A stretch of DNA of 64,000 nucleotides from Candidatus Cloacimonadales bacterium (GTDB taxonomy: Bacteria > Cloacimonadota > Cloacimonadia > Cloacimonadales > JAIOQZ01): contig OY762463.1 in NCBI GenBank assembly GCA_963665815.1, positions 1,184,001-1,248,000 on the forward strand, read 5' to 3'. This document shows, piece after piece, positions 1,441-60,406 of this stretch. The translations under genes and the position numbers were made by a program. The stretch's first letter is position 1. The number at the start of each line of letters is the position of its first letter. Under the pieces are notes generated by a model. That model saw only the letters and a program-made list of their open reading frames with translations, was not told the origin of the DNA and searched no databases.

Positions 1441-2790
1441 TCAACTTTCTCCCTCATTCAACTTCTCATACTGATAATTAAAAACTCTGTACGATAAACC
1501 AAGCAATTCTGCAGCCCTCTTTTTATTTCCCCTGGCTTTCAATATTGCCTGTGTGATATACTTGCTACGGATTTCATTCAAGACTGCTTCAAGGTCAATT
1601 TCACCATTCAGATCTATTATACACTCCAGCTCAGGTTTTACTGAAAACGAGAATGTTTCAGGGTTAATCACATCATCGGACAATACAGCTGCCCGATTAA
1701 TCTCACTTTTCAATTGTCTGATGTTCCCTGGCCAGTCAAACAGCATCAGCTTCCTTAAAGTATCATCATTTATGGCTTTATCAGGATACTTTTTCTTCAG
1801 GAAATAACGGGCAAGTTCCGGAATATCTTCTCTTCTGTCTTTAAGATCAGGGATTACCAGCTCAAAATTATTCAGTCTGTAATACAGGTCTTCCCGAAAA
1901 TCACCGTTTGTGACTTTATCTTTCAACGATTTATTTGTGGCAGAAATCACGCGGACATCCACATGCTGCGGATCAGATGACCCAATTTTATATACTTCTC
2001 CATTCTCCAGAACACGCAAGAGCTTTGCCTGAAACTCCAACGGCATCTCCCCTATCTCATCGAGAAACAATGTTCCTCCGTCTGCTTCGATGAATTTACC
2101 GTTATGATTAGTTACTGCACCGGTAAATGCTCCTTTCTCATGTCCGAAGAACTCGCTTTCAAACAAATCTTTCGGAATTGCTGCACAATTAACAGCTATA
2201 AACTTCCGGTTTCTTCTTGATGATATCTTGTGAATTGCTCTCACAATCAGCTCTTTACCCACTCCGCTCGAACCCTGTACCAGCACAGAAAGCTCTGTAT
2301 TAGCCACTTTCTCTGCCAGATTGCATGTATCTTTTATAGCTTTTGAAGATCCAATAATCTCCCTGAACGGATCGTCCTCGTATATCTGCGACTCAAGAGC
2401 ACTGAGCTTTCTGTTCAGCTCAACAACCCTGACAGCTCCATTGAGTATCGCCAGAATCTCGTTATTATCAAACGGCTTTGACACAAAATTATAAGCTCCG
2501 TCCTTCATTGCCTGAACAGCATGTTTTATCGTTCCGTGGGCAGTTATAAACACGTACTGAGCATGTTTCTGCAATACTTTCAGTTTCTGCATTGCCTCAA
2601 GGCCGTTCAGCAGAGGCATATTCATATCCAGAAGTACAACATCAAACTGGTTTTTACCGCATATCTTTATCGCTTCATTACCGGAATCTGCATCTATAAC
2701 TTCATATCCTTCTTTTTCCAGAAGCATTCTCAGTATTATCCGGATTTTCTCTTCATCATCTACAATCAGTATTCTGTTCTTTTTACTCAT
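1441..2790 (-). CDS. Sigma54-dependent NtrC-family response regulator (REC-AAA+-Fis HTH)
   Basis: ILIVDDE receiver, GSSGVGKE Walker A, GAFTGA, LFLDEIGE, WPGNIRQL, C-terminal KKRAAELLG HTH. Confidence 0.95.
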   Translation of the reverse strand: MSKKNRILIVDDEEKIRIILRMLLEKEGYEVIDADSGNEAIKICGKNQFDVVLLDMNMPLLNGLEAMQKLKVLQKHAQYVFITAHGTIKHAVQAMKDGAYNFVSKPFDNNEILAILNGAVRVVELNRKLSALESQIYEDDPFREIIGSSKAIKDTCNLAEKVANTELSVLVQGSSGVGKELIVRAIHKISSRRNRKFIAVNCAAIPKDLFESEFFGHEKGAFTGAVTNHNGKFIEADGGTLFLDEIGEMPLEFQAKLLRVLENGEVYKIGSSDPQHVDVRVISATNKSLKDKVTNGDFREDLYYRLNNFELVIPDLKDRREDIPELARYFLKKKYPDKAINDDTLRKLMLFDWPGNIRQLKSEINRAAVLSDDVINPETFSFSVKPELECIIDLNGEIDLEAVLNEIRSKYITQAILKARGNKKRAAELLGLSYRVFNYQYEKLNEGES

Positions 2791-3941
2791 TCTTTCCTCA
2801 TGCCAATTTTAAATTTTGTGCCGACACCTTCTTTGGAGATCACACTCATACTCATATTCATTGCGTCTGCCAGATTTTTTGAGATAGCCAGTCCCAGACC
2901 TGTCCCACCTTTTTTTACAGTAAAAAACGGCTTAAAAATATTACTGACAACATTCTCCGACATTCCGCATCCGGTATCCTCCCAGTATACATGAACATCA
3001 TTACCATTGATCTCTGTATAAATCTTAATCTGTTTACGCTCACTTTCAGAAAGCGCATCAAGACTGTTATTCATCAGATTAACCATAACCTGCCTTAAAG
3101 CATTCTCATCTGCTGAGACAAACTGCTTCTCAATACTATCACTTATTTCCACCGATATTCCCAGTTTAGACAATCTCTGTTCATACAGCAGTTTTACCGA
3201 ATTGATCAGTTCATATAAATCTACTTTTTCAAGGTTTATCACTTTGGGTCTGGCATAAACCAGAACTGACTCGGCAATATCATTTACTCTGTCAACCTCG
3301 CTGATGAGGCTGTCTGACAAATTCTTCAGTTTCTCATCAGGTACACTGTCCATAATAAACTGGATGGAGCTTCTGATTGATGTTAACGGATTCTTGATCT
3401 CGTGAGCTATCATGGAGGCTATGCTTTCCACCACAGACATTTTCTCATTAATAGACTCGTTCTTCAAACGTCTCTGCTCGTGAAGCATTCTTCTGGCGTT
3501 ACCAAGAGCAATTGCAGAAAGACGGAAAACCGTCATGAGAAACTCCAGAACTTCCTTTTTGAGAACTCCCGATTCTATCATGCAAAACCCAATCAGCTCA
3601 TTGTGAGATTCCAGCGGAAAAATGTAGTCGAACTCAATGCCTGAACGGACAACTTCATCCTTATAAACATATTCATAAGCTCGTTCTCCATGATAAAGCC
3701 AGGTTGAATTGGTTTTAAGCCAGTGAACAAGTTCCGAATCAGCAGAGATTTCCTTATTCTTTTCCTGACAGATAAATCCTGTTTCCTTCAGCTCAAAGAA
3801 ACTGACCCTGGTAATATCAAAGAATTCTATGATTCTTCCCTGCATAATCCGCACAACTTTATCCGGATCTACAATAATAGAATAAGCCGAGATAAACTCA
3901 TTAATGATTTTATTGAAATCAATTTTACTTTTATTGAACAT
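2787..3941 (-). CDS. Soluble sensor histidine kinase (GAF-like N-terminus, HisKA, HATPase)
   Basis: IAHEIKNPL H-box, QVMVNLMNNS, DTGCGM, FFTVKKGGTGLGL. Start moved to ATG 3941, which has a GGAG RBS. 4-nt overlap with the regulator. Confidence 0.9.
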   Translation of the reverse strand: MFNKSKIDFNKIINEFISAYSIIVDPDKVVRIMQGRIIEFFDITRVSFFELKETGFICQEKNKEISADSELVHWLKTNSTWLYHGERAYEYVYKDEVVRSGIEFDYIFPLESHNELIGFCMIESGVLKKEVLEFLMTVFRLSAIALGNARRMLHEQRRLKNESINEKMSVVESIASMIAHEIKNPLTSIRSSIQFIMDSVPDEKLKNLSDSLISEVDRVNDIAESVLVYARPKVINLEKVDLYELINSVKLLYEQRLSKLGISVEISDSIEKQFVSADENALRQVMVNLMNNSLDALSESERKQIKIYTEINGNDVHVYWEDTGCGMSENVVSNIFKPFFTVKKGGTGLGLAISKNLADAMNMSMSVISKEGVGTKFKIGMRKE

Positions 3942-4211
3942 GCATAAACTCCATACTGCAATATGAAGTATCTTCAGTATTTCTGTCAAGATAGCTTTGT
4001 GTAATAGCGGAATCGAGTCTACTGCTTCTGTTATGCCAAGCTCTCTGTCGTATATTACAGAAGTGAGGAGGAAGAAAAGGGGGAATTCTGTCATGTGGAA
4101 GTAGTATCATATATATATATTATTGCCTAAATGCAAAATATTAGTATAACATTATAGGTTTAATATTGATACTGGAAAAGTACTGCAGGAATGGCTAACA
4201 ACGTTTTATTA

Positions 4212-4338: not shown

Positions 4339-4423
4339 TTGACTTATTGAGCATAATTCATTCATTTAGGTATTGATACTAAAATCCATGTAATCTGTGA
4401 GGACTGATGAAATATCGCATTTT
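4339..4423 (+). promoter_or_regulatory. Duplicated promoter/leader/RBS block, copy 1 (begins TTGACT)
   Basis: 85 nt with 3 mismatches to 8152-8236; both copies precede the first gene of a propeller cassette. Confidence 0.8.
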
Positions 4424-5333
4424 CCTGTTACTCCTTTTCTGCCTGTTCCTGTTCTCCTGCTCTGACAATAAAAGTAAAGTCTTGAAAATGGAGGATATAT
4501 TCAAACTGGAGTCTGCAATAGAATTAAAAGACATAGATGAAATCCCAGTTTTTACATTTACTGAATTCGGTTTTTTTGCTATGCAAACTCATTCCAGCAG
4601 AGTGTCAAAGTTTCTGAATGATGGAACTGAGGAAAAAGTGTTTGGTAAGAAGGGAAAAGGACCTGGGGAGTTTGAGTGGGGCAGATTTTTGTCTTATTCT
4701 GAAGACATTCATACACTTGGAATATATGATATTCCAAATTTTAGAACGTTGTATTTCAATGATTCGTGCGAGTTTCAGAAACATGACTCTCGTCCAATTT
4801 CCGGGATTCCATACTTCAAACTCAGGAAGAATGATATTGAAGTATTCTCATTTTCTCAATTTCCTGATAATAATGGATTTTGGAAAAATAATATTGCTGT
4901 AAATGACTCTATCATTTTAAGTAATAATGAGAAGACAGATTCACAAATACCGGAGAAGTACTATCAATACAGCTACAATTCAGGCAGAATCATAATTTTG
5001 AAACCAGATGGAACAGACTTCGCGTTATATAATTACGACTTGGAAAACAGGAAGCTGAATCGCATAGAAACAGGTTCTAATAAGCATTACACAGTTAACA
5101 TATCAAGTATCAATAACGTACACACTATTGGAAAATACATCATAATAGAAGCCAGTAACACTGAAGATCGCCTGGAATACATCTTTATGAAGCAAAAAGG
5201 CAAGTACATCGGTACAATGGAGTTTGAAGAGGATTACAAAGCGATTTACGGTGTATATAACAACCACATTTATGTTGTTGAATCTGATGACTCCGAAGAA
5301 TGGATAATAGTACACAACTATATTCTGAAGTAA
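4407..5333 (+). CDS. 6-bladed beta-propeller (NHL-like) lipoprotein, paralog 1
   Basis: Lipobox LFSC; FGKKGKGPGEF motif; beta-rich, about 310 aa. Confidence 0.8.
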   Translation: MKYRIFLLLLFCLFLFSCSDNKSKVLKMEDIFKLESAIELKDIDEIPVFTFTEFGFFAMQTHSSRVSKFLNDGTEEKVFGKKGKGPGEFEWGRFLSYSEDIHTLGIYDIPNFRTLYFNDSCEFQKHDSRPISGIPYFKLRKNDIEVFSFSQFPDNNGFWKNNIAVNDSIILSNNEKTDSQIPEKYYQYSYNSGRIIILKPDGTDFALYNYDLENRKLNRIETGSNKHYTVNISSINNVHTIGKYIIIEASNTEDRLEYIFMKQKGKYIGTMEFEEDYKAIYGVYNNHIYVVESDDSEEWIIVHNYILK

Positions 5334-5345
5334 AATGGATCACTG

Positions 5346-6269
5346 ATGAAAGCGAAATACATTGTTCTACTATCGATATGCCTGCTGCTGTTTGCCTGTT
5401 CTGACAATAATAGCAAGGTCTTGAAAATGGAAGATATATTCAAACTGGTGAACACTGTCAAGTTAGAAGATACCGATTACTATCCACAACTTATTATTAC
5501 AGAGACTGGTTTTATTACATTTCAAGCTGACTTGAGCAAATTCACAAGATATTTAGATAATGGTGAAATTGTCAGTTCCTTTGGGAAGAAAGGAAAAGGT
5601 CCCGATGAAATAGAATTTGGAAAGAAGTATTATTATTCGAGTGATGAGGATATACTGGGAATCTTTGATGTTATGAACTACAAAATGACGTACTTTGATA
5701 AAACCGGATGTGTAGTTGAGCAGAAATCAGTTCATTTATCAGGAATACCATTTAGAGAATTAAAGATAAATGGTGTTCTCGTAAAAACACATACGAATTT
5801 CCCGAACGAAGACAATAAGTGGCAAAACACAATAACTATTAATGACTCACTAATTCTATCAAATGAGGAAACTCTTAGATCAGGGGATGTTACCGAACTG
5901 AATTATTATTTCTTCAGTTACAATAATGATAAAGTCTATATTGTGGCACCAAATCAAGGTGACTTTGATTTATATGCATACGATTTAATTAAGAAGAACT
6001 TGAAACATCTGAATGTAAAAGGTGGAAATAGTCATAAACAGATTGATATCCATAACATTATTGTAATCGGCAAATATATCATTTTGCCTGTTACCAATGA
6101 TGATGATTCCGGTAGTTGGCTTTGCTATAAGACTAATGGTAGATATGTTGGTGAATTGATTTGTGAAAATGAAAATGATTTTATAGTGAACTCAAATAGC
6201 AAGAATATGTACGTTGTTTCTACTGACAAAGAAGAAAACTATTCAGTAAAAATATACACATTGAAGTAG
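5346..6269 (+). CDS. 6-bladed beta-propeller lipoprotein, paralog 2
   Basis: Lipobox LFAC; FGKKGKGPDEI; clearly similar to paralog 1. Confidence 0.8.
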   Translation: MKAKYIVLLSICLLLFACSDNNSKVLKMEDIFKLVNTVKLEDTDYYPQLIITETGFITFQADLSKFTRYLDNGEIVSSFGKKGKGPDEIEFGKKYYYSSDEDILGIFDVMNYKMTYFDKTGCVVEQKSVHLSGIPFRELKINGVLVKTHTNFPNEDNKWQNTITINDSLILSNEETLRSGDVTELNYYFFSYNNDKVYIVAPNQGDFDLYAYDLIKKNLKHLNVKGGNSHKQIDIHNIIVIGKYIILPVTNDDDSGSWLCYKTNGRYVGELICENENDFIVNSNSKNMYVVSTDKEENYSVKIYTLK

Positions 6270-6282
6270 TAAAGGATCACTG

Positions 6283-7230
6283 ATGAAAGCTAAATACTTT
6301 AATCAATTATTACTAATATTTGTATTATGCTCATGCAATTATAGAATGCAGGAGAGGAAGCTTGCTTTTGATATAATCACAGAATTCAATCTCCCAGAAA
6401 TAATTAATCCTGATGTTTGTGCTACGAAAGATGAAATATTTGTAACAAATTTGGCAACTCAAACTGATGGAAAAATTTATACCTATAACTATCAAGGAGA
6501 TTTATTATCAGAATTTGGAGGAAAAGGTGATGGACCTGATGAGTTCACACATATTTTCAATATATTCTATGACTATAATAAAAATCTACTAGGAATATAT
6601 GATTTTTATGGATTCTGTATAAAGTACTATAATGCAAAACATGAATTGGTCATGAAAGATGTTCTTGACAAAACTATGTTTAATAAGGTTTATACGGCAG
6701 AATCAAGTCTTCAAAGTCACTTATTTCCAAAAGATAGCTCAGATAAGAAGCTATACTATTTACACGACTTACATCTGGAAAATGGAAATAAAATATCCCT
6801 TAAGGAAAAAGAGTTCTTATCAAGTGATGACTTCAGCATCTTCAAAGAATCAACAAGAATTGCTGCCAATATGGATTTCTTTTTCATCTGGGATTTAAAT
6901 GGCAATGAAACCTCTGTTGAGCAATTCGACGTGGAGGGTAATCCTGTTAAGAAATGGGATTTGAAGATGCTGCCAAGATATCTGGAAAACATTAAAAAAT
7001 ATAACAGAATACATGCAGGAGATGATTTCATTCTATACGATTTTCAGGACAATAATGATGTTCACTTCTATGACGCCTATGATTTCAAGAATAAATATCT
7101 TGGCACCATTAGAATGAGCAAGCCTGAAGACACAATCCCGTTTGTTTTTAAGGATAAGATTTTCATGCTGGAATACAATGAACAAGACGATGAAGATTTC
7201 TATGTATGTAAAATACTGAAAATGAAGTAA
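6283..7230 (+). CDS. 6-bladed beta-propeller lipoprotein, paralog 3
   Basis: Lipobox LCSC; FGGKGDGPDEF. Confidence 0.8.
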   Translation: MKAKYFNQLLLIFVLCSCNYRMQERKLAFDIITEFNLPEIINPDVCATKDEIFVTNLATQTDGKIYTYNYQGDLLSEFGGKGDGPDEFTHIFNIFYDYNKNLLGIYDFYGFCIKYYNAKHELVMKDVLDKTMFNKVYTAESSLQSHLFPKDSSDKKLYYLHDLHLENGNKISLKEKEFLSSDDFSIFKESTRIAANMDFFFIWDLNGNETSVEQFDVEGNPVKKWDLKMLPRYLENIKKYNRIHAGDDFILYDFQDNNDVHFYDAYDFKNKYLGTIRMSKPEDTIPFVFKDKIFMLEYNEQDDEDFYVCKILKMK

Positions 7231-7249
7231 AATCAACAAGGAGACATGC

Positions 7250-7606
7250 ATGCATACACTCATAAAATTCATTGCAATGGTAATAATTCAATCATCAGTA
7301 CTTTATCTTATAACAAATAAATTGATGATGATAAGCAACAGCCCTTTCGTTAAATCTTTAATCGTAACTATTATAATAGCCGCAATTGATTCCGGAGTTG
7401 CATTATTAGTAGGAGATCCTCATGGATTTCATGCCGGAATGTTTGCAAAAATTGCGAACTATCTGACAATTATACCGGCTATTCTAACTTTCAAAATTGC
7501 TTATGATCTTACAGTGCAACAGCTGTTTTTGTTCATTGTAGGTTACAGGATTATTCTGTTTGTTGTTGGTTTTACAATCATCCCCATAACAGCAGCAATA
7601 TATTAA
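7250..7606 (+). CDS. Small integral membrane protein (about 4 TM), unknown function
   Basis: AAGGAG RBS; hydrophobic segments; 19 nt after paralog 3. Confidence 0.7.
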   Translation: MHTLIKFIAMVIIQSSVLYLITNKLMMISNSPFVKSLIVTIIIAAIDSGVALLVGDPHGFHAGMFAKIANYLTIIPAILTFKIAYDLTVQQLFLFIVGYRIILFVVGFTIIPITAAIY

Positions 7607-7702
7607 TATAACATGATCGGTTCGGTTTTTTTGCCCTTCCACACCGTTCTCAGAGTGCAAAAAAGCAAATATTTTATAGTCAAAAGTAATTTATGACGTA
7701 GG

Positions 7703-7815
7703 TTTTCCCGATTCTTCGGGACTCAACCGACTTAACGTATTGATAGATATTGATATGATCGTTCCCTGACAGACTGTGTTGCACCTGACGGCGCTCGAAA
7801 AGCTGCCTGACAAAT
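7703..7815. repeat. REP-like composite repeat (family A plus CCTGACGGxGCTCGAA unit)
   Basis: 7722-7769 equals 10161-10208 with 1 mismatch; 7778-7815 resembles 10325-10361; inverted relative to 4212-4293. Confidence 0.8.
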
Positions 7816-7961
7816 CTCTTTTTACAGCAGAACTTGTGCAATTTAGTTAGACATAGCTGTCAGTATCTGTATTTCCTCTTTGTCACTTAAAGTCGTTATA
7901 GGCCTACATTAAGTCTTTTCAATTGCAAATTTGTGTAATCGTTCTATCTGTTGATAAAAGT

Positions 7962-8100
7962 AAATTTTCCCGTTAAGAAATCCTGAAGCCTTGGAAGGAT
8001 TTCAGGGGAGATTTATGGTTCCAGCTTGCTGGAAATACATTTTGATAAAGAGTGCCTTTCTTTTGCTTCGTTTTCTTTGGCACCAAAGAAAATGAAGAAA
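7962..8100 (+). repeat. 139-bp MITE/REP-like element, family B, copy 1
   Basis: About 90% identical by hand alignment to the reverse complement of 10423-10561; internal palindromes TTCCAGCxTGCTGGAA and CTTCGTTTTCTTTGG..CCAAAGAAAATGAAG. Confidence 0.9.
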
Positions 8101-8151
8101 CAAATATCAGGAGTTAAAAATATAAAATGGATTGAAAGATGTAGAAAACAG

Positions 8152-8236
8152 TTGACTTATTGAGCATAATTCATTCAATCAGGTATTGATACTAAAATCC
8201 ATGTAATCTGTGAGGACTGATGAAATTTCGCATTTT
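8152..8236 (+). promoter_or_regulatory. Duplicated promoter/leader/RBS block, copy 2
   Basis: Direct repeat of 4339-4423, offset 3813 nt. Confidence 0.8.
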
Positions 8237-9173
8237 TATTATTCTCCTTCTCTGCCTGCTGCTATTTGCCTGTACAGAGAAGAAACAAAATCCAACATTG
8301 GATGTTAAACAAATCAGTTTATTCAAAGTACCCGAACTGTATAAATCCCCGGTTGTATGTGCTGCTAATAATAAAATAGTATTCACTGACGCTGAGGATG
8401 GGGTTATTTATGTTTATAATTATGCTGGAGAGAAACTTAAATCCTTTGGCAATAAAGGACAGGGTCCCGGTGAATTTCAAGGGGTATATCATATAGTCTA
8501 TCAGGAGAATCAGAATCTATGGTACTTTTACGATCTATACCATTGGAAAATCCATGTTTATTCTGATACTTTCGATTACATCAAATCTGAGAAAACATCT
8601 TCTATAATTGCAGGAATGAAACCGTGGAAAGATAATGTTCTTATACAAGTAAGAATTCCGGTAAGTGTCGATGGATCACGAATTTTTGACGACAGGATAA
8701 AAGTGTTCAACCCAAAAGGTGAAGAAAAGACTATCAGGAACAAGCTGCTGAAATCAATAACAGATGTTGAGTTTATGCTAGAATACGGCTTGATGTTTGA
8801 TACGAATTCCAACAAGCTGTTTGTTCTGGATAAACAGCAGAATACTTTCTCCGTAGAAGAGTACACAGACGAGAACACAAAAATCAAATGGGAAATGGAA
8901 GACAACATAACTGTAATAGATAATGCGAAAATATCGGGTATCTATGCAGGAAAAGACTTTATCATTATAAAAAGGCTTAAACCTGAAGATGAGGAAGATA
9001 CATACTATACTTATTATGAGTTCTATGATTTCAATCAGCACTATCTGGGTAAGCTAATACTGAATAATAAAAATGAGTACATAATAGATGTGTACGAGAG
9101 CAAACTGATTAAACTTGTGAAAGACGAAAATGGTGACTACTCATGCAGTATTCTGGAGGTAAAGTTATTGTGA
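8220..9173 (+). CDS. 6-bladed beta-propeller lipoprotein, paralog 4
   Basis: Lipobox LFAC; FGNKGQGPGEF. Confidence 0.8.
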   Translation: MKFRIFIILLLCLLLFACTEKKQNPTLDVKQISLFKVPELYKSPVVCAANNKIVFTDAEDGVIYVYNYAGEKLKSFGNKGQGPGEFQGVYHIVYQENQNLWYFYDLYHWKIHVYSDTFDYIKSEKTSSIIAGMKPWKDNVLIQVRIPVSVDGSRIFDDRIKVFNPKGEEKTIRNKLLKSITDVEFMLEYGLMFDTNSNKLFVLDKQQNTFSVEEYTDENTKIKWEMEDNITVIDNAKISGIYAGKDFIIIKRLKPEDEEDTYYTYYEFYDFNQHYLGKLILNNKNEYIIDVYESKLIKLVKDENGDYSCSILEVKLL

Positions 9174-10111
9174 CAGTAGTAAGAAACTTCGCATTCATTT
9201 TTATTTTAATGTTCGTAATTTCCGGCTGTTCAGATAGACGTAATTCTGATGGAAAGCTATCTATTTTGCCAGTTATCAGCTTTGAGATAGAAGGAGCAGG
9301 CAGTTCTCCAATTGTACATGCATCAAAAGATTATATTTTCATCAGTGATATGCTTGATGGAATTGTAAATGTATATAACTATGAGGGAAATAAAATCAAA
9401 ACCTTTGGCAGTAAAGGAAAAGGACCGGGTGAGTTTTTGTCAGTATCGATGTTATGCCGGTTAGAACCATTAGATGAATTAGTAATATATGATGTTTACC
9501 AGAAGAGACTTTCATTCTTCAATAAAGAGTTTGAACTCAGCAATACCGTAAATATTCAGGAATACCTTTTGAGTATACAGCCACTTCAGAACAATTTACT
9601 TTATGTTACCAGAAAACCTGCAGAAAATGGAATGATGAGTGGTTTCAACGATTTAGTAACTATGAAAAATATTAGTTCTGATGAAAAAATCATAACTAAG
9701 AAATTTCTGCCTGCTTCTGATGATGTTTTAACTTATGTGGACAAAGGTCTGCTGATTGATACAAACTCAGAGAATTTGTTCGTTCTGAATAGAGGCGATG
9801 ATTTCGTAATTGAGCAGTATGTTAACGGAACAAACAAGAAAATCTGGAAATTGAATAAAGAAAAAATAAACATTGAGTTCACAAAACTAAATTCTATTCA
9901 TTGTGGTAGTAATTTCATCATTTTGAATTTGGTAAAGGCAGATAACTCTATGAACTATGCATTCTTTGATTTCGACGAACAATTTCTGGGAGAACTCAAC
10001 ATGAATACAGAAAATGAGTATATTATTGATGTACACAAAAACAAACTTATTAAGCTTGTAACTGATGAAAATGGTGATTACATCTGTAGTATTATGGAGG
10101 TAAAGTTTTAA
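9170..10111 (+). CDS. 6-bladed beta-propeller lipoprotein, paralog 5
   Basis: Probable GTG start at 9170 overlapping the upstream TGA, with a GGAGG RBS; lipobox ISGC; FGSKGKGPGEF; C-terminus close to paralog 4. Confidence 0.8.
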   Translation: MTVVRNFAFIFILMFVISGCSDRRNSDGKLSILPVISFEIEGAGSSPIVHASKDYIFISDMLDGIVNVYNYEGNKIKTFGSKGKGPGEFLSVSMLCRLEPLDELVIYDVYQKRLSFFNKEFELSNTVNIQEYLLSIQPLQNNLLYVTRKPAENGMMSGFNDLVTMKNISSDEKIITKKFLPASDDVLTYVDKGLLIDTNSENLFVLNRGDDFVIEQYVNGTNKKIWKLNKEKINIEFTKLNSIHCGSNFIILNLVKADNSMNYAFFDFDEQFLGELNMNTENEYIIDVHKNKLIKLVTDENGDYICSIMEVKF

Positions 10112-13678: not shown

Positions 13679-14416
13679 TTAATCTGCTTCAACAGATAAT
13701 GAGTTTTCTATTCTGCCTTCCATATAGTCTATATACAGATTTTCCAGATTTTCAAACTCGAATTCATCACGTCTTCTTGAAAGCACAAGTTCACCATCCT
13801 TCATAATACCTATCTGGTCAGCCAGTTCTTTAGCTCTGAATATGTTATGAGTAGACATCAGAACAGCTTTACCGTCTTTCTTCATTCTCAAGACCAGATC
13901 CTGAAAATCCTTTGCGGCTTTTGGATCGAGACCGGAAAAAGGTTCATCCATAAGAATAATATCAGCATCCTTAACAATTGCTATAGCAATACCTGTCTTC
14001 TGTCTCATACCCTTGGAGTAATAGCTGACCGGTTTGTTGATAAAGCTCTCCTGTAGTCCGATATCCCTGAGGATATTCTCAAGCTCGGTTCTTGATCTGC
14101 TTGTTTTGCTTAGATTAGAAAAGAACTTAAGATTTTCATATCCTGTAAAATTCTCATATAATCTGACATTCTCAGAAATATATGCAATATCATTCTTTGC
14201 TTCTCTGGAGTCCTGCACAGAGTCTTTTCCATTAATGATGATTGTTCCCTCGGTAGGTTTTATAAAACCGCAGATAAGGTTTATTGTTGTTGATTTACCT
14301 GCCCCATTCGCCCCGAGAAGCACGTAAATTTCGCCACTTTCAACGTTAAAACTGATGTGATCCAATGCGATCTTCTTGTCTTCATACCTCTTTGTTAAAT
14401 CCTTAATCTTTAACAT
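13679..14416 (-). CDS. ABC transporter ATP-binding protein
   Basis: GANGAGKST, YSKGMRQK signature, ILMDEP, H-loop. Confidence 0.95.
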   Translation of the reverse strand: MLKIKDLTKRYEDKKIALDHISFNVESGEIYVLLGANGAGKSTTINLICGFIKPTEGTIIINGKDSVQDSREAKNDIAYISENVRLYENFTGYENLKFFSNLSKTSRSRTELENILRDIGLQESFINKPVSYYSKGMRQKTGIAIAIVKDADIILMDEPFSGLDPKAAKDFQDLVLRMKKDGKAVLMSTHNIFRAKELADQIGIMKDGELVLSRRRDEFEFENLENLYIDYMEGRIENSLSVEAD

Positions 14417-14425
14417 TCTTCCTCC

Positions 14426-15850
14426 TTAATTTCGTGATAACTTCACCATGAAGTATATCAGCATTCCAAGTATTGTTATTGCCGCGAGAATCAGAATTAT
14501 ATTAAGCCAGATGTTGGACTTGTTCAAAATCTCCATTTTCAGTTCCTTATCTGACGTGAATATACTTTTACTAATATCTTTGCCCTTTGCTTTAATCCTT
14601 ACCTGATATATTCCCTGGAGTGATTTCTTATCAGGGATTATGTTGAATTTAAGCTTTTGCTCCTGCTCAGGTCCCAGCTTATCAATAAACTCAGGTTCAA
14701 TCACCTTTTCCCACCCTGATGGCATGAGCACCTCAAATGTCACATCCTTAATCACTTTCTTACCTGTATTCTTGATGCTGAATTGAGAGATTTCGAACTC
14801 TTTACCCTTTTCCTGCACAAAATACATATTGTCCAATGACAGCTCCATCTCGGCTTTGCCCACAGGAATAATCTGCAATTCACTTGATCCTGTCTCCTTG
14901 TTTTCCGAACTTAGAACATTTACACTAAACACCAGTGCTTCGTTAAACACAGATTCATCTAATTTTTCTGGAACAGATATACTTAGAGCTACATTATGAA
15001 CAGGTTCCTGAGCAGACATTGCCAGTGTTGAGATCGCAGCATTGTTCTTAGCATTAATAAAGTTGAAAGAGTAAGTTCCCGGTAGTCCTGCACAATTTAG
15101 TTTATACACCTCTCTTGAAGCTCCGAAATACTCAATTCTCAGATTGTAGATTGCTGATGCTGCAGTTTCAACTTCCTGGGAAAACACATTAGAGGTAATA
15201 ACAACAGAATGCTCCGCTGTTTTTCTCTTCAGCCACACCCTTTTCTCATCAACCTTACCTGCGTAAACTGCAGATACTGTTACAGCCTGAACATCCTTTA
15301 GCACAGAAAAATCTATTGTGTAACTTTTACCGGACAGCATTTCAGGGATATGATATTCGTAGGGTTGAGATATAATGTTCCCGGACTCATCCTTGAGCGA
15401 TACATACACATTGTATAGACTTTCAGGTCTCAGCTTCATATCTTTGAGAGTACTGATCAAATCATCTTCAAGAGCGTAAGAACCGGCTGAATTATTCCTT
15501 ATTTCCATCACAACTTTGTAACGACCTGTTTCATCTTTATATTTCTCTGCTTTCACGACAGTTATGTATGGATTTTCAAAGATTACTCCCAGCATATACT
15601 GCTGAAAATTCAGTTCATCATTCTCATACTGCAGCTTGATGTTCTCAAACTCATCTTGAGAGATGTACTTCTTCTCAAATAACTTTTGAGCTCGATTAAA
15701 TTCCTGCTCTGACTGCTCAAGCCTTTTCTTAGCTTTCTGTAATGCCAGAATACGGAACCTATCATCATTGGGATTATACTCCTGATAAGTAATTCCACTT
15801 ATGATGGACATTATTATTAAATTGATCATTAATAAAATTATTTTCTTCAT
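14426..15850 (-). CDS. Exported, C-terminally anchored protein: MFP-like alpha-hairpin plus Ig-like (NEW3/COG1470-type) domains
   Basis: Signal peptide from MKKIILL (GGAG RBS); helical hairpin at about aa 35-88; IKNTG...PSGWE...LGP Ig-like domain; C-terminal TM with a basic tail. Confidence 0.75.
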   Translation of the reverse strand: MKKIILLMINLIIMSIISGITYQEYNPNDDRFRILALQKAKKRLEQSEQEFNRAQKLFEKKYISQDEFENIKLQYENDELNFQQYMLGVIFENPYITVVKAEKYKDETGRYKVVMEIRNNSAGSYALEDDLISTLKDMKLRPESLYNVYVSLKDESGNIISQPYEYHIPEMLSGKSYTIDFSVLKDVQAVTVSAVYAGKVDEKRVWLKRKTAEHSVVITSNVFSQEVETAASAIYNLRIEYFGASREVYKLNCAGLPGTYSFNFINAKNNAAISTLAMSAQEPVHNVALSISVPEKLDESVFNEALVFSVNVLSSENKETGSSELQIIPVGKAEMELSLDNMYFVQEKGKEFEISQFSIKNTGKKVIKDVTFEVLMPSGWEKVIEPEFIDKLGPEQEQKLKFNIIPDKKSLQGIYQVRIKAKGKDISKSIFTSDKELKMEILNKSNIWLNIILILAAITILGMLIYFMVKLSRN

Positions 15851-15870: not shown

Positions 15871-15886
15871 TGCATGCTGAGTGCCA
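15871..15886 (-). promoter_or_regulatory. Sigma54 (-24/-12) promoter of the ABC operon
   Basis: Minus strand TGGCACTCAGCATGCA, GG-N10-GC, 21 nt before the ATG; candidate enhancer palindrome TTGTAGATATCTGACAA at 15971-15987. Confidence 0.75.
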
Positions 15887-16058: not shown

Positions 16059-16204
16059 TGTTAAATGACTTTATGTAGTATGTAAGGTTTGCAATGAGTT
16101 TATTGCACTTTTGAAGTATTGGGCGTACTTCATTAACACTCCGCAAAAGGTTAATAATACATTATATAAAGTCTGGCTGTTGAATTTCAACAGCCTTTTT
16201 TTTT
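16059..16204 (+). ncRNA. Putative structured small RNA or leader (four-way junction plus intrinsic terminator)
   Basis: TTGACT-N17-CATATT promoter at 16024-16052; closing stem 16067-16084/16158-16173; three internal hairpins; terminator GGCTGTTGAA/TTCAACAGCC followed by T9. Confidence 0.6.
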
Positions 16205-41648: not shown

Positions 41649-42146
41649 ATGATATCATCACTTTTTAACGCAATAGATATAGCCTCTTCCGGTATAGCTG
41701 TACAACGCACAAGAGTTAATACAATTTCTGAGAATATTGCTAATGCACAAACTACAAAAACCGATGATGGTTCACCATACAGAAGAAAAATCCCTGTTAT
41801 TCAGACAGGTGATCCAAATATGAAGTTTTCTGATATTTTCCATAAGAATCAGTTAAAAATGGAGCAGACAGAAAATACTCATATGGAAGACAAACCTTTT
41901 AAAGACCTTAAAAAATGTAATCTGACAGGTGTACATGTATCTGAAGTTGTCGAAGATCAATCACCTTATAAAATGGTGTATGACCCACATCATCCGGACG
42001 CAGATGACAAAGGTTATGTTGCAATGCCTAATGTAAACATTGTTCAGGAGATGACAGATCTGATTTCTGCAACAAGAACTTTCGAAGCAAATGTAACAAC
42101 CCTTAACAGCAGTAAGGACATGATTAGAAAAGCCCTTAAGATATAG
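41649..42146 (+). CDS. flgC: Flagellar basal-body rod protein
   Basis: SENIANAQTT, PYRRK, YDPHHPDAD.KGYVAMPNVN. Confidence 0.96.
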   Translation: MISSLFNAIDIASSGIAVQRTRVNTISENIANAQTTKTDDGSPYRRKIPVIQTGDPNMKFSDIFHKNQLKMEQTENTHMEDKPFKDLKKCNLTGVHVSEVVEDQSPYKMVYDPHHPDADDKGYVAMPNVNIVQEMTDLISATRTFEANVTTLNSSKDMIRKALKI

Positions 42147-42163
42147 GCTTATAAGAGGTTATA

Positions 42164-42469
42164 ATGGCTTTAAGAATATCAAATCACAATATTACAGCTA
42201 ATGATCTGTTGAAAGATTCCGCTCTCCAGAGATATGGGAAAATATCTCCGGAACAGAATAATAAAAAAAAGGTTGAAAATAATTCACCTTCAATAAATAA
42301 TTTACCAATAGTTAAATCAAGCGAATTGAGAACGTATATTTCAGCTGATGAGAGACACGTGCTGAATGAGATTTTTGGTAAAGATCCCAGAGCTGACCGA
42401 CCTGAAGGATTTGTTATGAAACAGGATCCTGCTTCCATGAAAGGTCTTCACATTGATATTCAGTATTAA
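42164..42469 (+). CDS. Small hypothetical protein within the flagellar operon
   Basis: AGAGG RBS; tight spacing; ends KGLHIDIQY. Confidence 0.7.
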   Translation: MALRISNHNITANDLLKDSALQRYGKISPEQNNKKKVENNSPSINNLPIVKSSELRTYISADERHVLNEIFGKDPRADRPEGFVMKQDPASMKGLHIDIQY

Positions 42470-42493
42470 ACTGATGAGGAATTTTACCGATAA
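42467..42493 (+). promoter_or_regulatory. Sigma28 (FliA)-type promoter before fliE
   Basis: TAAA-N15-ACCGATAA versus consensus TAAA-N15-GCCGATAA. Confidence 0.65.
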
Positions 42494-42510
42494 TAAGGTA
42501 AGGAGTTAAT

Positions 42511-42822
42511 ATGTCTGACCCAAGAATTACAGCTATTCAGCAAATGAATCAATTGAAAGACATTGCGAAAAGTAAAGATAGCATACAGCAGAAAAAACCC
42601 GAAGTATCCTTTAAGGATATGATGAAGCAATATCTTAATGAAGCTAATGAACAGCAGCTTGAAGCAGATGAAAACATACAGAAGATAATTGCAGGTGAAG
42701 ATGTTGATCCTCATGACGTAATGATTGCTGCTGAAAAAGCAAACCTCAGTTTTGATTTAATTATGGAAATCAGAAACAAGATGCTGGAAGCATACAAAGA
42801 AGTTATCAAATCACCTGTTTAA
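42511..42822 (+). CDS. fliE: Flagellar hook-basal body protein
   Basis: HDVMIAAEKA...EIRNKMLEAYKE. Confidence 0.95.
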   Translation: MSDPRITAIQQMNQLKDIAKSKDSIQQKKPEVSFKDMMKQYLNEANEQQLEADENIQKIIAGEDVDPHDVMIAAEKANLSFDLIMEIRNKMLEAYKEVIKSPV

Positions 42823-42870
42823 TAAACATAAATGATTTACTTAATTTTCCGGTAATCTGAGAAAGAGAAT

Positions 42871-44463
42871 ATGCAGGATTTTATACAAGACTTTCGAGCA
42901 AAAATTGCTGAGATTTACGGCAGACTTGAGACCAGACAAAAAATTGTCCTTGGTGTACTGTTAATCGCCAGTTTCGCAGTTTTTATCTGGCTTATAAGCT
43001 GGAGTACAAAAGAAGAATATTCCCTTCTTTTTGGTAATATGGACCCTAAAGAAGCGAATGAAGCAATTAAGAAATTAGACGAACTGAATATTAAATACAA
43101 ACTGAGCAATGCTGGAAAATCAATACTGATACCTAAAGAGCTTGTATACTCAACCAGAATAAAACTCAGTTCGGAAGGAATTGCCAGCCAGACCGGAGTT
43201 GGATTCGAGATATTCGATAAACCTAATCTTGGAACAACAGAAGCTGTTCAGAAGCTTAACAGACAAAGAGCTCTTGAAGGTGAACTCCAGAGAACAATCA
43301 TGGCGATTGACGGAGTTGAATTTGTAAGAGTACACCTGCAGCTTCCGGAAGAAAAACTGTTTCAGGAAGATCAACAGGAGCCATCCGCTTCTGTTTTGAT
43401 TCAATCTAAAGGCAAACTTAATCAGAGACAGGTAGAGGGTATTACAAACCTTATAGCTTCTGCTGTGGAAGGTCTTGAAGTATCAGCTATTACAGTTACA
43501 GACAGAAATGGGAACATCCTCACAGAAAACTATGATGATTCTGTTTCAGGGTTATCCAGTTATCAGCTTAAACTCCAGAGACAGGTTGAAACAGATCTTA
43601 AGCATAAAGTTCAAACTATGATGGATAAACTCGTTGAACCTGGTAACTCAGAAATTAGAGTTTCTGCCGAATTGAACTTTGACAAAATAGAATCAACCAT
43701 GGAGAAATATGATCCGGACAGTAAAGTCACCAGATCTGAAGAAATCGAGAATGTTACTTCTGAAATGGCAGCAGACAGTATTTCCGAATCATCCGAACAT
43801 TTAATAACAAACTATGAAATCAACAGGACTGTTCAACATGTATTCAATTCTGTTGGAAATATAAAAAGACTTTCAGTCTCAGTTACAGTTAATCACAGAA
43901 TCGATTATAAAATTGTCGATGGTAAAGAGGTAAAAGAATATACTGAAAGAACAACTGAAGACCTTGAACAGATTGAATCTCTCGTAAGAACTGCTGTAGG
44001 ATTCTCAGCAGAACGAGGAGATGCAATTGTAGTAAACTCCCGTAGATTCGAAACAGCAAATTATGATAAGTGGAAAAGAGAGCAAAGCCAGGTTGAGACA
44101 AGAGGTGTAATGATGAAGATGGTTGAAACAGGAGTCATTCTTCTCATACTTGTGATACTTATTTTCACTCTTATCAGTCAGTTCAGAAAAGTATTCGCAC
44201 AACCTGCCGAAGCAGAAGAAAGCTCACTTCGACCAGTACTTGCACATGGAGATATTGATCAGGAAGGTTTCTATCCAGAAGGTGAAGAAGGCCTTCCAAT
44301 GGGCGAAGGTAAAATTTCATATACATTCAAGCCTATGAAAGACATTGAAATTGAACAGACAGAAACAATGGCTCTTCAAGAAGCAGTAAAAACCTTTATT
44401 CTGGAAAATCCGGAGACTGCAGTTAAACTGATTAAGAGCTGGATACTGGAAAGGAAATTTTAG
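42871..44463 (+). CDS. fliF: Flagellar MS-ring protein
   Basis: GFEIFD, RALEGELQRTI, ARVH-like VRVHL, PSASV, IKRLSVSV, ENPE...IKSW. Confidence 0.96.
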   Translation: MQDFIQDFRAKIAEIYGRLETRQKIVLGVLLIASFAVFIWLISWSTKEEYSLLFGNMDPKEANEAIKKLDELNIKYKLSNAGKSILIPKELVYSTRIKLSSEGIASQTGVGFEIFDKPNLGTTEAVQKLNRQRALEGELQRTIMAIDGVEFVRVHLQLPEEKLFQEDQQEPSASVLIQSKGKLNQRQVEGITNLIASAVEGLEVSAITVTDRNGNILTENYDDSVSGLSSYQLKLQRQVETDLKHKVQTMMDKLVEPGNSEIRVSAELNFDKIESTMEKYDPDSKVTRSEEIENVTSEMAADSISESSEHLITNYEINRTVQHVFNSVGNIKRLSVSVTVNHRIDYKIVDGKEVKEYTERTTEDLEQIESLVRTAVGFSAERGDAIVVNSRRFETANYDKWKREQSQVETRGVMMKMVETGVILLILVILIFTLISQFRKVFAQPAEAEESSLRPVLAHGDIDQEGFYPEGEEGLPMGEGKISYTFKPMKDIEIEQTETMALQEAVKTFILENPETAVKLIKSWILERKF

Positions 44464-44475
44464 ATTACCAATAAT

Positions 44476-45144
44476 ATGAGTAACTTTACATTAAAATCAC
44501 CTGTGCCTATTCGCAAAGCTGCACTCAGTTATGAAAATGGAGATAATCAGGATAAGAAAATCATGAATAACGATATACTAGATCATCTTCTGGAACAAAG
44601 AGAAAGAAAACTGAGACAGCAATACGAGTCCATACTGAAGCAGGAAACTGATAAAGCTTATCATAGAGGTTTCAATGATGGTAAGGATCAATCTCAAATT
44701 GTTTTGAATCAACAACTTCAACCCATACAAGACTTCGCAGCAAGAATTACTGAACAATTCAGGAATGAACTTGATTCCTTTTATGAAAAAGAGGAACAGC
44801 AAATTCTGGAGCTTATTCTGCATATTGCCCGTAAAGTTATACATACTGAAGTTTCATTAAATCCGGAAATTGTTCTGCATATTTTAAGATCAAGTCTTAA
44901 ACTGCTAAGCGACAGAAGAAACATTGTTATAAATGTGAATTCTGCTGAATGGTCAATTATAAAAGAAAACATGGAATCACTGGGACATGAATTTGATATT
45001 CCCGCTGATACTGAGATCAGAGGTACACAACACCTTGAAAAAGGAAGTGTCAGGATTGATACTGAATCAGGAACAATTGATTCCCGGATTTCTACTCAAA
45101 TTGACGAAATAACCAGAAAAATTCTGAAAGAATATAAAATCTGA
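44476..45144 (+). CDS. fliH: Flagellar export protein FliH
   Basis: AYHRGFNDG repeat, IARKVI, GSVRIDTESGTIDSRI. Confidence 0.85.
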   Translation: MSNFTLKSPVPIRKAALSYENGDNQDKKIMNNDILDHLLEQRERKLRQQYESILKQETDKAYHRGFNDGKDQSQIVLNQQLQPIQDFAARITEQFRNELDSFYEKEEQQILELILHIARKVIHTEVSLNPEIVLHILRSSLKLLSDRRNIVINVNSAEWSIIKENMESLGHEFDIPADTEIRGTQHLEKGSVRIDTESGTIDSRISTQIDEITRKILKEYKI

Positions 45145-45145
45145 A

Positions 45146-46459
45146 ATGTCTGTCCCAATTAACTTCTCAAAATATCATCAAATAATAGATAATGTGAATC
45201 CAATTAAGCAAAACGGTACTGTTTCACAAATTATCGGACTGATAGTAGAATCAATCGGACCTGCCGCCTCAATAGGAGATATCTGCTATATACACTCCAA
45301 TGATGGCAGAAAGCACATGACAGAGGTTGTAGGTTTCAAGAAAAACAAGACCTTGCTGATGCCCCTCAAAGAGCTATATGGTATTGCTCCCGGAAATCAG
45401 GTATCAACATTCAGAGAACCGTTTTCTGTTGCTACAGGGGATGAGCTTCTTGGAAGAGTGATCGATGGCCTGGGAAACCCTATAGACAGTGGTCCGGAAC
45501 TTAAACTGAAAGAACGTCGTTCCGTTTTCAGTCCTCCACCGAATCCACTTACAAGACAAAGGATAACTGAACCGCTTCAGCTCGGCATAAGATCAATTGA
45601 CGCATTGTTGACATGTGGAAAAGGTCAGAGAACAGGTATTTTTGCCGGCTCGGGTGTTGGTAAATCTGTTCTTCTCGGCATGATTGCCCGTAACACAAAA
45701 GCAGATATCAATGTTATTGCTCTGATTGGTGAGCGGGGACGTGAAGTAAGAGACTTTATTGAAAGCGATCTTGGAGAAGAAGGACTTAAACGATCAGTTG
45801 TTATTGTTGCAACATCAGATCAGGCTGCTCTTACAAGAGTCAAGGGAGCATTAGTAGCTACGACAATAGCCGAGTATTTCAGAGATAAAGGACTGAATGT
45901 TCTACTGATGATGGACTCCGTTACACGATATGCCATGGCACTAAGAGAAATAGGACTGGCAGTCGGTGAACCTCCAACAACAAAAGGATATACTCCATCT
46001 GTGTTTGCAAATCTCCCAAAACTGCTTGAGCGAGCTGGTACATCCGCAACAGGGACAATAACAGGGCTTTATACTGTGCTGGTAGAAGGTGGAGACATGG
46101 ATGAACCGATTGCCGATGCAGTACGTTCCATCCTTGACGGGCACATTCTGTTATCTCGTAAACTGGCATCAAAAGGACATTATCCGGCTGTAGAAATACT
46201 TGGATCAATATCTCGTGTGATGAATAGTGTCATTGAAAACGAACAGAAAACTGCAGCCCAGAAAATTATTGAGATAATGGCAACATATAAAGAAGCTGAA
46301 GATATCATCAATATTGGAGCATATTCATCAGGTTCCAACCCTAATATTGATTATGCTATTTCAAAAATAGAAAAAGTTAATAGATTTCTTAAGCAGCAGA
46401 TTGAAGAGAAGTCAGATTTTCAGACAACTCTTGATCAGCTAAAAGCAATAATAAAATAA
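45146..46459 (+). CDS. fliI: Flagellar export ATPase
   Basis: GIFAGSGVGKS, ALIGERGREV, MDSVTRYAMALREIGL..GEPP. Confidence 0.96.
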   Translation: MSVPINFSKYHQIIDNVNPIKQNGTVSQIIGLIVESIGPAASIGDICYIHSNDGRKHMTEVVGFKKNKTLLMPLKELYGIAPGNQVSTFREPFSVATGDELLGRVIDGLGNPIDSGPELKLKERRSVFSPPPNPLTRQRITEPLQLGIRSIDALLTCGKGQRTGIFAGSGVGKSVLLGMIARNTKADINVIALIGERGREVRDFIESDLGEEGLKRSVVIVATSDQAALTRVKGALVATTIAEYFRDKGLNVLLMMDSVTRYAMALREIGLAVGEPPTTKGYTPSVFANLPKLLERAGTSATGTITGLYTVLVEGGDMDEPIADAVRSILDGHILLSRKLASKGHYPAVEILGSISRVMNSVIENEQKTAAQKIIEIMATYKEAEDIINIGAYSSGSNPNIDYAISKIEKVNRFLKQQIEEKSDFQTTLDQLKAIIK

Positions 46460-58043: not shown

Positions 58044-58054
58044 ATTTCTATCCG

Positions 58055-59104: not shown

Positions 59105-59114
59105 GAAGTCTCCG

Positions 59115-60368: not shown

Positions 60369-60406
60369 TTCACATTATCCCTTGATAAACTCAAAATTCT
60401 TATACC

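Follow-up and report, generated by a model that had tools for sequence, protein, structure and literature searches.

In a window of 64,000 nucleotides from the genome of a Candidatus Cloacimonadales bacterium (contig OY762463.1, positions 1,184,001 to 1,248,000), the first gene of an ATP-binding cassette (ABC) transporter operon encodes a protein, here called P0001, which carries an antiparallel alpha-helical hairpin of the type known from membrane fusion proteins (MFPs) on a stalk of three immunoglobulin (Ig)-like domains and ends in a transmembrane (TM) helix. There is little doubt in our view that this hairpin is derived from, or homologous to, the hairpins of MFPs, and the protein very likely belongs as a subunit to the ABC-2 transporter of its operon. 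We tentatively propose a new class of adaptor, i.e. a C-tail-anchored Ig stalk with an MFP-derived N-terminal hairpin and an inverted topology, which might link sigma54-controlled, NosY-fold ABC-2 exporters of the Fibrobacteres-Chlorobi-Bacteroidetes (FCB) group and neighbouring diderm phyla to TolC-family channels in trans. The coordinates of all features are collected in Table 1.

The relatives of P0001 were compared in two alignments: A2 comprises 141 rows, and A3, with 92 rows, holds the query together with those higher-ranked representatives at 50% identity that are at least 440 aa long; its members are 22–45% identical to the query. The 49 rows of A2 that are absent from A3 are 12 close Cloacimonadota orthologs, 3 longer architecture variants and 34 lower-ranked representatives. 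Among the NCBIfam models, aa 36–83 match positions 72–119 of the 322 positions of TIGR01730 with an E-value of 8e-6 and 25 bits, which is below the cut-off of 94.9 bits, and the same residues match the CzcB, EmrA and HlyD models more weakly and likewise below threshold. When the A3 relatives were scanned singly (E <=0.01), weak matches to TIGR01730 were obtained in 42 of 92, to CzcB in 28, to EmrA in 10, to MdtN in 6, to DevB in 2, and in 5 a weak match to the HlyD/PRK03598 model, which we take to be the one naming YbhG.

Searches within the genome gave the same picture. A hidden Markov model (HMM) built from A3 and run against the 3994 open reading frames (ORFs) of at least 100 aa in the 3.96-Mb genome recovered the gene itself first, which is present in one copy, followed by five of the nine canonical MFPs (E 3e-6 to 1.3e-4), then by two TolC genes, and by a single additional ORF (E 7e-4). 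Aligned with hhalign to an alignment of the nine MFPs, the hairpin columns reached a probability of 97.1 (E 7.5e-11, 54 columns), as against 0.15 for the reversed hairpin as control. In addition, BLASTP of aa 25–95 against these MFPs aligned 57 residues without gaps to the MFP at C1:1847888, at 33% identity (E 1.4e-7, computed for this small set). The hairpin is equal in length to those of this MFP and of the one at C1:1767924, both of which adjoin TolC and RND-sized (resistance-nodulation-division) genes.

At the structural level, 48,161 PDB chains were scanned with VIA-align, which is independent of Foldseek. Model residues 25–90 superpose on MexA (1vf7_A) with Z 10.6 and a root-mean-square deviation (rmsd) of 3.0 over 65 residues, on a Bacteroides adaptor (4l8j_A) with Z 10.6, on a MacA-MexA chimera (4dk1_A) with 9.8 and on EmrA (8zar_A with 9.4, 4tko_B with 9.2). 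Unrelated non-MFP hairpins score Z 9.3 and 9.1 in the same scan, and helical pieces often reach such values, so that the structural match indicates compatibility and is no proof. The resemblance to MFP hairpins, which had been suggested by a first-pass annotation made from the letters of the window, was borne out by the hhalign comparison with its control, with which the superposition on MexA agrees. Further leads are that one JGI cluster of relatives has been automatically named 'AcrA (membrane-fusion protein)', that MexJ came second in a profile search of PDB sequences (E 0.69, not significant alone), and that a search of the ESM Atlas with the hairpin alone gave best scores of 0.77–0.80, with HH_AprE on 30% of the members of one cluster, which we regard as a lead only.

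P0001 is the stop-free translation of its reading frame from ATG 15850. This ATG is the best candidate for the start codon, because GGAG is found 8 nt upstream and because orthologs start at an aligned MK(K/R). The database gene call (P0002) begins at M14, and a longer ORF from 15892 was rejected since it would read through a sigma54-type promoter element. The AlphaFold2 model was built from a 19-row ortholog alignment and has a mean predicted local distance difference test score (pLDDT) of 82.4 and a predicted template modelling score (pTM) of 0.41. It contains a hydrophobic helix (2–20), two helices at 30–59 and 65–90 with a 5-residue turn between them, three beta-sandwich domains and finally a TM helix. 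Both helices of the hairpin have an alanine at every seventh residue (A40, A47 and A54; A71, A78 and A85), a spacing which probably marks a tightly packed antiparallel coil.

An N-terminal hydrophobic region was found in 86 of the 92 relatives, and the other six appear to be truncated at the N-terminus. In 71 of the 92 the hydrophobic region is followed by [small or aliphatic]-x-[A/G/S] and then Q, which is a site of the signal-peptidase-I type and corresponds to the 'Q-rule' described for signal-peptidase-I sites of Bacteroidetes (PMC5837995). The putative cleavage context of P0001 itself reads ...IISG|ITYQ. A lipoprotein anchor was ruled out as there is no Cys after the hydrophobic region. 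Cleavage at this site would place the hairpin about 10 residues from a free N-terminus and would leave the C-terminal helix as the sole anchor, which is the inverse of the situation in MFPs. These 10 residues (aa 20–29) are the best-conserved segment in the 19 close orthologs, with a mean top-residue frequency of 0.91 and with Y22, Q23, Y25, N26 and P27 invariant, and in the model residues 20–26 have a pLDDT below 50. From here the conservation among the close orthologs falls steadily towards the anchor, the corresponding values being 0.72 for the hairpin, 0.63 for domain 1, 0.56 for domains 2 and 3 and 0.53 for the TM helix.

Much of the architecture which the first-pass annotation had described can thus be retained: an antiparallel helix-turn-helix does follow the signal peptide in the model, an Ig-like stalk and a C-terminal TM helix come after it, and the inverted topology is supported by a signal peptide that looks cleavable in most relatives, together with a C-terminal helix as the only predicted anchor. 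The stretch of hairpin letters which it quoted is present with R53, L57 and S64 correctly numbered, although it spans aa 35–85 and not aa 35–88.

The family is large: at 50% identity it forms 482 clusters that reach E <=1e-3, and 82 of these reach E <=1e-30. The hairpin is present in 152 of 165 family sequences, and 11 of the 13 sequences without it are fragments. The only Pfam match of P0001 is NEW3/NPCBM_assoc (PF10633) at aa 356–422 (E 5.8e-12; 46.1 bits against a cut-off of 24.4); it was found in all 92 A3 relatives, and public databases annotate the relatives as 'NEW3 domain-containing protein'. This third domain resembles the N-terminal domains of GH123-type enzymes (VIA-align Z 11.4). 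The proline P163 in the sequence IISQPYE of domain 1 is the only one that is invariant across all 141 aligned relatives; a similar P-Y-E motif is repeated in the domain-1 copies of long variants, and none of the searches pointed to a function.

Domains of the NEW3 and CARDB type are common in surface proteins. CARDB matches occur in 17 of the 92 relatives, and Foldseek with the whole model of P0001 retrieved generic Ig tandems alone, such as integrin legs and ciliary proteins. One might therefore regard the protein as an envelope scaffold or adhesion-type protein, whose link to the ABC genes would reflect its own export or modification and whose hairpin would be a generic coiled coil. We consider this most unlikely. 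The C-terminal TM helix with its tail of one residue would hold such a protein in the inner membrane, and the hairpin is specifically MFP-like, given that out of 3994 ORFs only MFPs, TolCs and one further ORF were found and that the reversed control was negative. Moreover, two proteins from two sources, P0089 (892 aa) and P0186 (924 aa), are natural fusions of a permease-2-like protein with a hairpin protein, which argues for a stoichiometric subunit of the transporter.

The operon itself is tight, with gaps of 9–11 nt, and consists of the genes for the hairpin protein, an ABC ATPase, ABC-2 permease 1 and ABC-2 permease 2. The linkage was followed through 40 orthologous loci of up to 21 kb from Cloacimonadota, from metagenome-assembled genomes labelled Ignavibacteriota or Bacteroidota, from Kryptoniota and from Zixibacteria. 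In 37 of them ATPase and/or permease genes stand beside the hairpin gene, and in the remaining three a contig end truncates the relevant side. One ATPase and one hairpin protein are common to one to three permease pairs, and several permease pairs per hairpin protein fit an exporter with several specificities. Most Cloacimonadota loci have the hairpin gene first and one permease pair, and in loci labelled Ignavibacteriota or Bacteroidota (L017, L019, L020, L024, L027-L030, L032-L034, L036 and L040) two to three successive permease pairs and one ATPase are found, with the hairpin gene last.

Both permeases match ABC2_membrane_2 (PF12679), with 94.4 bits for permease 1 and 74.7 bits for permease 2 at a cut-off of 27.2. 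The AlphaFold2 model of permease 2 (pLDDT 89.8, pTM 0.84) is closest to NosY (7o0y_D; Z 26.7, rmsd 2.4 over 252 residues; Foldseek TMt 0.70-0.74), followed by a mycobacterial efflux pump, ABCG/ABCA proteins and PmtCD with Z 16–20. Together these matches place the permeases among the type V ABC exporters, with their fold of six TM helices. In permease 2 the TM5–TM6 loop contains long helices (up to 37 residues), and the helix of TM1 runs well beyond its hydrophobic span. The TM scan of permease 1 shows a loop of about 240 aa between TM5 and TM6. According to the predicted topology, the TM5–TM6 loops of both permeases and the TM1 extension of permease 2 would be periplasmic.

On this basis the product of the gene is best explained as a periplasmic adaptor-like subunit of an inducible ABC-2 exporter with the NosY fold (type V). 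Signal peptidase I would release its N-terminus, and the C-terminal helix would tether it to the inner membrane beside the permeases. The three Ig-like domains, which would measure about 11–12 nm when extended, would raise the hairpin of about 4.5 nm to the height of the contact between MFPs and TolC; estimated from typical domain sizes, an extended stalk places the tip 15–16 nm above the inner membrane, which is approximately that height. Several copies would then offer their tips to an outer membrane factor (OMF) encoded elsewhere and common to other pumps, so that substrates taken by the ABC-2 permeases would exit across both membranes. In such an arrangement the Ig stalk and the C-terminal anchor would stand in for the lipoyl, beta-barrel and membrane-proximal domains and for the N-terminal anchor of a classical adaptor.

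That the hairpin protein docks an OMF of the TolC family is a reasonable possibility, which we would hesitate to call probable. It is supported by the homology, the length and the tip consensus of the hairpin, by its place at the free and best-conserved end of the stalk, by the fact that no other adaptor was found, by a gene order similar to that of ybhGFSR, and by a distribution that is so far limited to diderms, as all named relatives come from diderm phyla. In particular, the ORF list and the Pfam matches of the operon agree with the earlier statement that no conventional adaptor is encoded in it.

The tip motif deserves separate consideration. R-x3-L-x6-S is the TolC-contacting tip motif of the hairpins of MacA, AcrA and MexA, in which single mutations interfere with the binding of TolC and with efflux (PMC3391258), while the motif is not absolute among MFPs, and BesA lacks a hairpin altogether (PMC4446572). 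The bare pattern is weak evidence alone, and a strict search for R...L......[ST] within the first 200 aa was positive in 73 of the 141 relatives. Its position at the tip of the hairpin is not a matter of chance, however, since aa 36–83 match four MFP models and the profile-level tests concur, so that an RLS-type motif at the tip of an MFP-type hairpin, as claimed previously, can be accepted. Across the diverse relatives of A3 the R column is occupied most often by R (52/92), the L57 column by L (83/92) and the S64 column by S or T (79/92); two further columns counted in this way are G61 (54/92) and E/D67 (74/92). As regards the conservation of the three residues among orthologs, on which the first-pass annotation had made its reading depend, R, L and S hold as the consensus of the wider family and L57 and S64 are each conserved in 18 of the 19 close Cloacimonadota orthologs, but R53 is lost in this near clade.

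The loss of R53 is one of several observations that weigh against docking. In the 19 close orthologs its column reads N in 16 sequences, R in two and D in one, and L57, G61, S64 and E67 may be explicable by the fold, as residues of the hydrophobic core, a helix C-cap and an S-x-x-E capping box. The kinship with MFPs is confined to the hairpin: no MFP match was obtained outside it and no Pfam MFP family in the query or the 92 relatives (E <=0.01). Two relatives, P0083 and P0092, are genuine hairpin-less variants, each with its own signal peptide. The length of the stalk varies as well, and three relatives of 718–797 aa keep the hairpin and have extra copies of domain 1. Furthermore, the fusions P0089 and P0186 retain the N-terminal hydrophobic segment before the hairpin; if it remained uncleaved in the fusion with the permease, the base of the hairpin would be tied to the inner membrane.

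Gene neighbourhoods point in the same direction. An HMM of the seven OMFs of this genome, which detected four out of four OMFs from other genomes as a positive control (E <=1e-56), found no OMF gene among the 1860 ORFs (at least 70 aa) of the 40 loci, up to a distance of about 10 kb. The matches of an MFP HMM in these loci were the hairpin proteins themselves alone (27/40), with no canonical MFP among them. Five out of five other operon-bearing genomes have OMF genes, none of which lies beside the operon, the nearest that could be placed being about 22 kb away. In the present genome all seven OMF genes adjoin canonical MFPs, and thus no orphan channel is waiting for a partner. This also applies to the TolC gene at 59115–60368, which the first-pass annotation had named as a possible partner and which we rejected as a dedicated one: it sits between two RND genes, and a canonical MFP of its own is found just past the end of the window. 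Because it is part of a complete RND operon there is no specific reason to select it. In detail, this operon (54996–63999, minus strand) comprises RND genes at 54996–58043 and 61474–63999, the TolC gene and two propeller lipoprotein genes, and its MFP lies upstream at C1:1248638-1249747. On the other hand, two canonical MFP pumps have no adjacent OMF gene, namely an MFP-RND pair at C1:2315900-2320143 and an MFP-MacB-like pair at C1:2387931-2392410, so that unlinked OMFs must be in use in this genome. A search for longer homologs yielded none for P0001 and, for A3, three unrelated-looking matches of 1665–3488 aa, with no fusion to an OMF or a canonical MFP among them, which is weak evidence.

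An alternative that accommodates many of these observations is that the hairpin acts inside an inner-membrane complex without any OMF, where it would oligomerise, clamp the helices of the permeases or transmit an ATP-driven movement. Substrates would then be set free in the periplasm or in the outer leaflet, or the complex would mechanically drive some periplasmic process, in analogy to NosD with NosFY, to EnvC with FtsEX, where the coiled coil of EnvC sits on FtsEX, or to the hairpins of Gram-positive bacteria. NosDFY, the nearest solved transporter, is understood to drive a periplasmic partner and not to pump through a channel, and NosY is the closest match of permease 2, whose long loop helices could pair with a coiled coil. 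The absence of OMF genes from all 40 loci, the TM segment directly before the hairpin in the permease fusions, the variable length of the stalk, the variants without a hairpin and the loss of R53 in 17 of the 19 close orthologs would also be understandable in an inner-membrane complex. In addition, MFP-type hairpins are found in adaptors of Gram-positive bacteria, which have no OMF (PMC4446572). Such a complex would however not readily account for a tip motif with an exposed R as the family consensus, for the free and best-conserved end being the farthest in sequence from the anchor, or for a hairpin as long as those of the RND adaptors of the same genome, and several permease pairs per hairpin protein suit an exporter better than a single mechanical client. 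We regard an action within the inner membrane as plausible, although short of probable.

It is also conceivable that the hairpin is itself an OMF-like tip, or a free coiled-coil ligand, which binds to the MFP hexamer of another pump or to some other periplasmic coiled coil and in this way regulates or borrows a tripartite pump. In line with this, the hairpin profile aligns to the helix-turn-helix of the TolCs of the genome with an hhalign probability of 91.6 over 50 columns, the two TolC genes appeared in the genome search with the family HMM, and weak sub-threshold matches to OEP, confined to the hairpin, occur in 8 of the 92 relatives; these similarities also count against a specific MFP-like docking role. 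The MFP match is clearly the stronger one, with hhalign scores of 60 for MFPs versus 41 for TolCs and with 42 versus 8 of the 92 relatives, and none of the 40 loci links the gene to an MFP pump. P0001 itself gave no OEP match with Pfam and does not belong to the outer membrane factors. We know of no precedent for an OMF-like tip that docks on an MFP crown and consider this explanation improbable.

The operon is preceded by a sigma54-type -24/-12 element. Across the window such sites occur at the frequency expected by chance (24 found versus 23.6 expected), whereas in the 40 loci 12 of the 16 sites lie within -200 to +80 of the start of an operon gene, a zone that makes up 7.7% of the sequence (binomial P 5.7e-11). 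Apart from the ABC genes, only a histidine kinase and an NtrC-type sigma54 activator recur beside the operon, in about 14 of the 40 loci. In our window the orthologous pair lies downstream of the operon and is separated from it by five beta-propeller lipoprotein genes on the opposite strand. The kinase is 31–43% identical to the operon-adjacent kinases of 7 Cloacimonadota loci (best paralog in the genome 29%, at 53% coverage), and the regulator is 47–60% identical to operon-adjacent regulators elsewhere (paralogs at most 39%). The kinase has one weak hydrophobic segment (aa 35–53) and no recognisable periplasmic sensor domain. Its input may be a signal from the cytoplasm or the membrane, or else the transporter.

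Within Cloacimonadota the hairpin gene is accessory. Sixteen of 201 sampled genomes carry it, 14 of them among the 151 of high quality. It is present in all eight genomes of one family and in none of the 88 and 52 genomes of the two largest families.

Table 1. Features of the hairpin protein gene, its operon and its putative regulators (window coordinates; all on the minus strand)
Feature	Position	Strand	Basis and remarks
Hairpin/Ig-stalk/NEW3 protein P0001, 474 aa, operon gene 1	14426..15850	-	ORF, orthologs and model
Putative signal peptide, aa 1-19	15794..15850	-	hydrophobic segment 4-22; presumed cleavage
Mature N-terminal peptide (I)TYQEYNPNDD, aa 20-29	15764..15793	-	ortholog conservation
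MFP-type antiparallel alpha-hairpin, aa 30-90	15581..15763	-	profile, pairwise and structural matches
Hairpin tip with RLS-type motif R53-x3-L57-x6-S64, aa 53-64	15659..15694	-	motif definition PMC3391258
Beta-sandwich domain 1, aa 96-206	15233..15565	-	AlphaFold2 model; holds invariant P163
Beta-sandwich domain 2, aa 215-330	14861..15208	-	AlphaFold2 model and structure scan
Beta-sandwich domain 3 (NEW3/NPCBM_assoc), aa 335-442	14525..14848	-	Pfam PF10633
C-terminal TM anchor, aa 447-473, one-residue tail	14432..14512	-	model and TM scan
ABC ATPase, single nucleotide-binding domain	13679..14416	-	PF00005 E 1.3e-32; 9 nt past gene 1
ABC-2 permease 1, 528 aa	12083..13669	-	PF12679 E 9.3e-27
ABC-2 permease 2, 466 aa	10671..12071	-	PF12679 E 9.4e-21
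Sigma54-type -24/-12 element TGGCAC-N5-ATGCA (TGGCACTCAGCATGCA)	15871..15886	-	about 20 nt upstream of start codon; one mismatch to TGGCACN5TTGCW
Cognate sensor histidine kinase	2787..4094	-	HisKA and HATPase_c
Cognate sigma54-dependent NtrC-type response regulator	1441..2790	-	Response_reg, Sigma54_activat and HTH_8

The window contains seven paralogous lipoprotein-like genes, at 4407–10111 on the plus strand (five in tandem) and at 58055–59140 and 60407–61477 on the minus strand, five of which match DUF5128 (6-bladed beta-propeller). Two of the paralogs interleave with the RND and TolC genes, and five stand between the ABC operon and its two-component system; the near-identical relative L001 is arranged alike. 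A strong terminator-like hairpin with a 9-bp stem and a T9 run is located at 16175–16204 (plus strand) between the operon and ackA, with no plus-strand gene upstream of it. Flagellar genes for a rod protein, FliF, FliH and a FliI-type ATPase are found at 41649–46459 (plus strand) of this Cloacimonadota genome.

No published description of a hairpin/Ig-stalk adaptor architecture was found in the literature on NEW3/NPCBM-associated proteins with ABC transporters, on COG1470 and on Ig-like periplasmic adaptors. Two reviews describe adaptors as built from membrane-proximal, beta-barrel, lipoyl and hairpin modules, with an anchor that is N-terminal where there is one (PMC4446572, PMC13328181), and a 2026 adaptor review makes no mention of Ig-like or immunoglobulin domains, C-terminal transmembrane anchors, YbhG, atypical adaptors or Bacteroid*. 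In the present family only the hairpin would have been retained of the MFP modules and transferred to a different scaffold with the opposite anchoring. If the hairpin docks an outer-membrane channel, it would constitute a portable docking module and the family a second structural solution for spanning the periplasm, which would also explain export across the outer membrane by a widespread and unstudied ABC-2 group of Cloacimonadota, Ignavibacteriota, Zixibacteria and their relatives. If no such docking takes place, the family offers a natural experiment on the roles of MFP hairpins besides TolC binding; the role of the hairpin in Gram-positive adaptors was left open by the 2015 review (PMC4446572). 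Either way, the operon with its promoter, regulators, ATPase, two permeases and hairpin protein represents a compact and testable unit.

Among known systems the MFPs (AcrA, MexA, MacA, EmrA, HlyD) share with P0001 the antiparallel hairpin of the length of short RND adaptors with its R-x3-L-x6-S tip, the position as first gene of a transporter operon and the periplasmic location. As expected for an MFP, P0001 is also encoded together with an inner-membrane transporter, on which it probably acts in view of the tight ABC operon, the 37 of 40 loci and the permease-2 fusions. It differs in that the lipoyl, beta-barrel and membrane-proximal domains are replaced by three Ig-like domains (no HlyD_3, HlyD_D23 or Biotin_lipoyl in the query or the 92 relatives at E <=0.01), in that its hairpin forms the N-terminal end of the chain and does not protrude from a lipoyl domain, and in that its anchor is a C-terminal TM helix and not an N-terminal lipid or helix. 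Since it lacks the lipoyl and beta-barrel domains and the N-terminal anchor, and since its full-length TIGR01730 score of 25 bits compares with a cut-off of 94.9, we do not file P0001 as an MFP. With the NEW3/NPCBM proteins (PF10633; 'COG1470' membrane proteins) it has the C-terminal beta-sandwich in common, but the name NEW3 is uninformative on function, and the hairpin, the two additional beta-sandwich domains, the C-terminal anchor and the linkage to ABC-2 genes set the family apart.

The YbiH-YbhGFSR system of E. coli, with the MFP YbhG, the ATPase YbhF and the permeases YbhS and YbhR, shows the same order of adaptor, ATPase, permease and permease; its operon has no OMF gene either, and YbhG is thought to link to the common TolC (PMC7190983). 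In contrast to P0001, YbhG is a canonical MFP. The permeases studied here best match the NosY-like ABC2_membrane_2 and have large helical TM5–TM6 loops, and control by sigma54 and a two-component system takes the place of a TetR-type repressor. With NosDFY(L) (PDB 7o0y) the operon shares the NosY fold of permease 2, and NosD is, like P0001, a periplasmic accessory protein encoded in the same operon. NosY however forms a homodimer and lacks a helical TM5–TM6 loop of about 185–240 aa, NosD is a beta-helix protein and not a hairpin on an Ig stalk, and no nos genes are located nearby. The system as a whole is nearest to YbhGFSR in its organisation and to NosFY in its fold.

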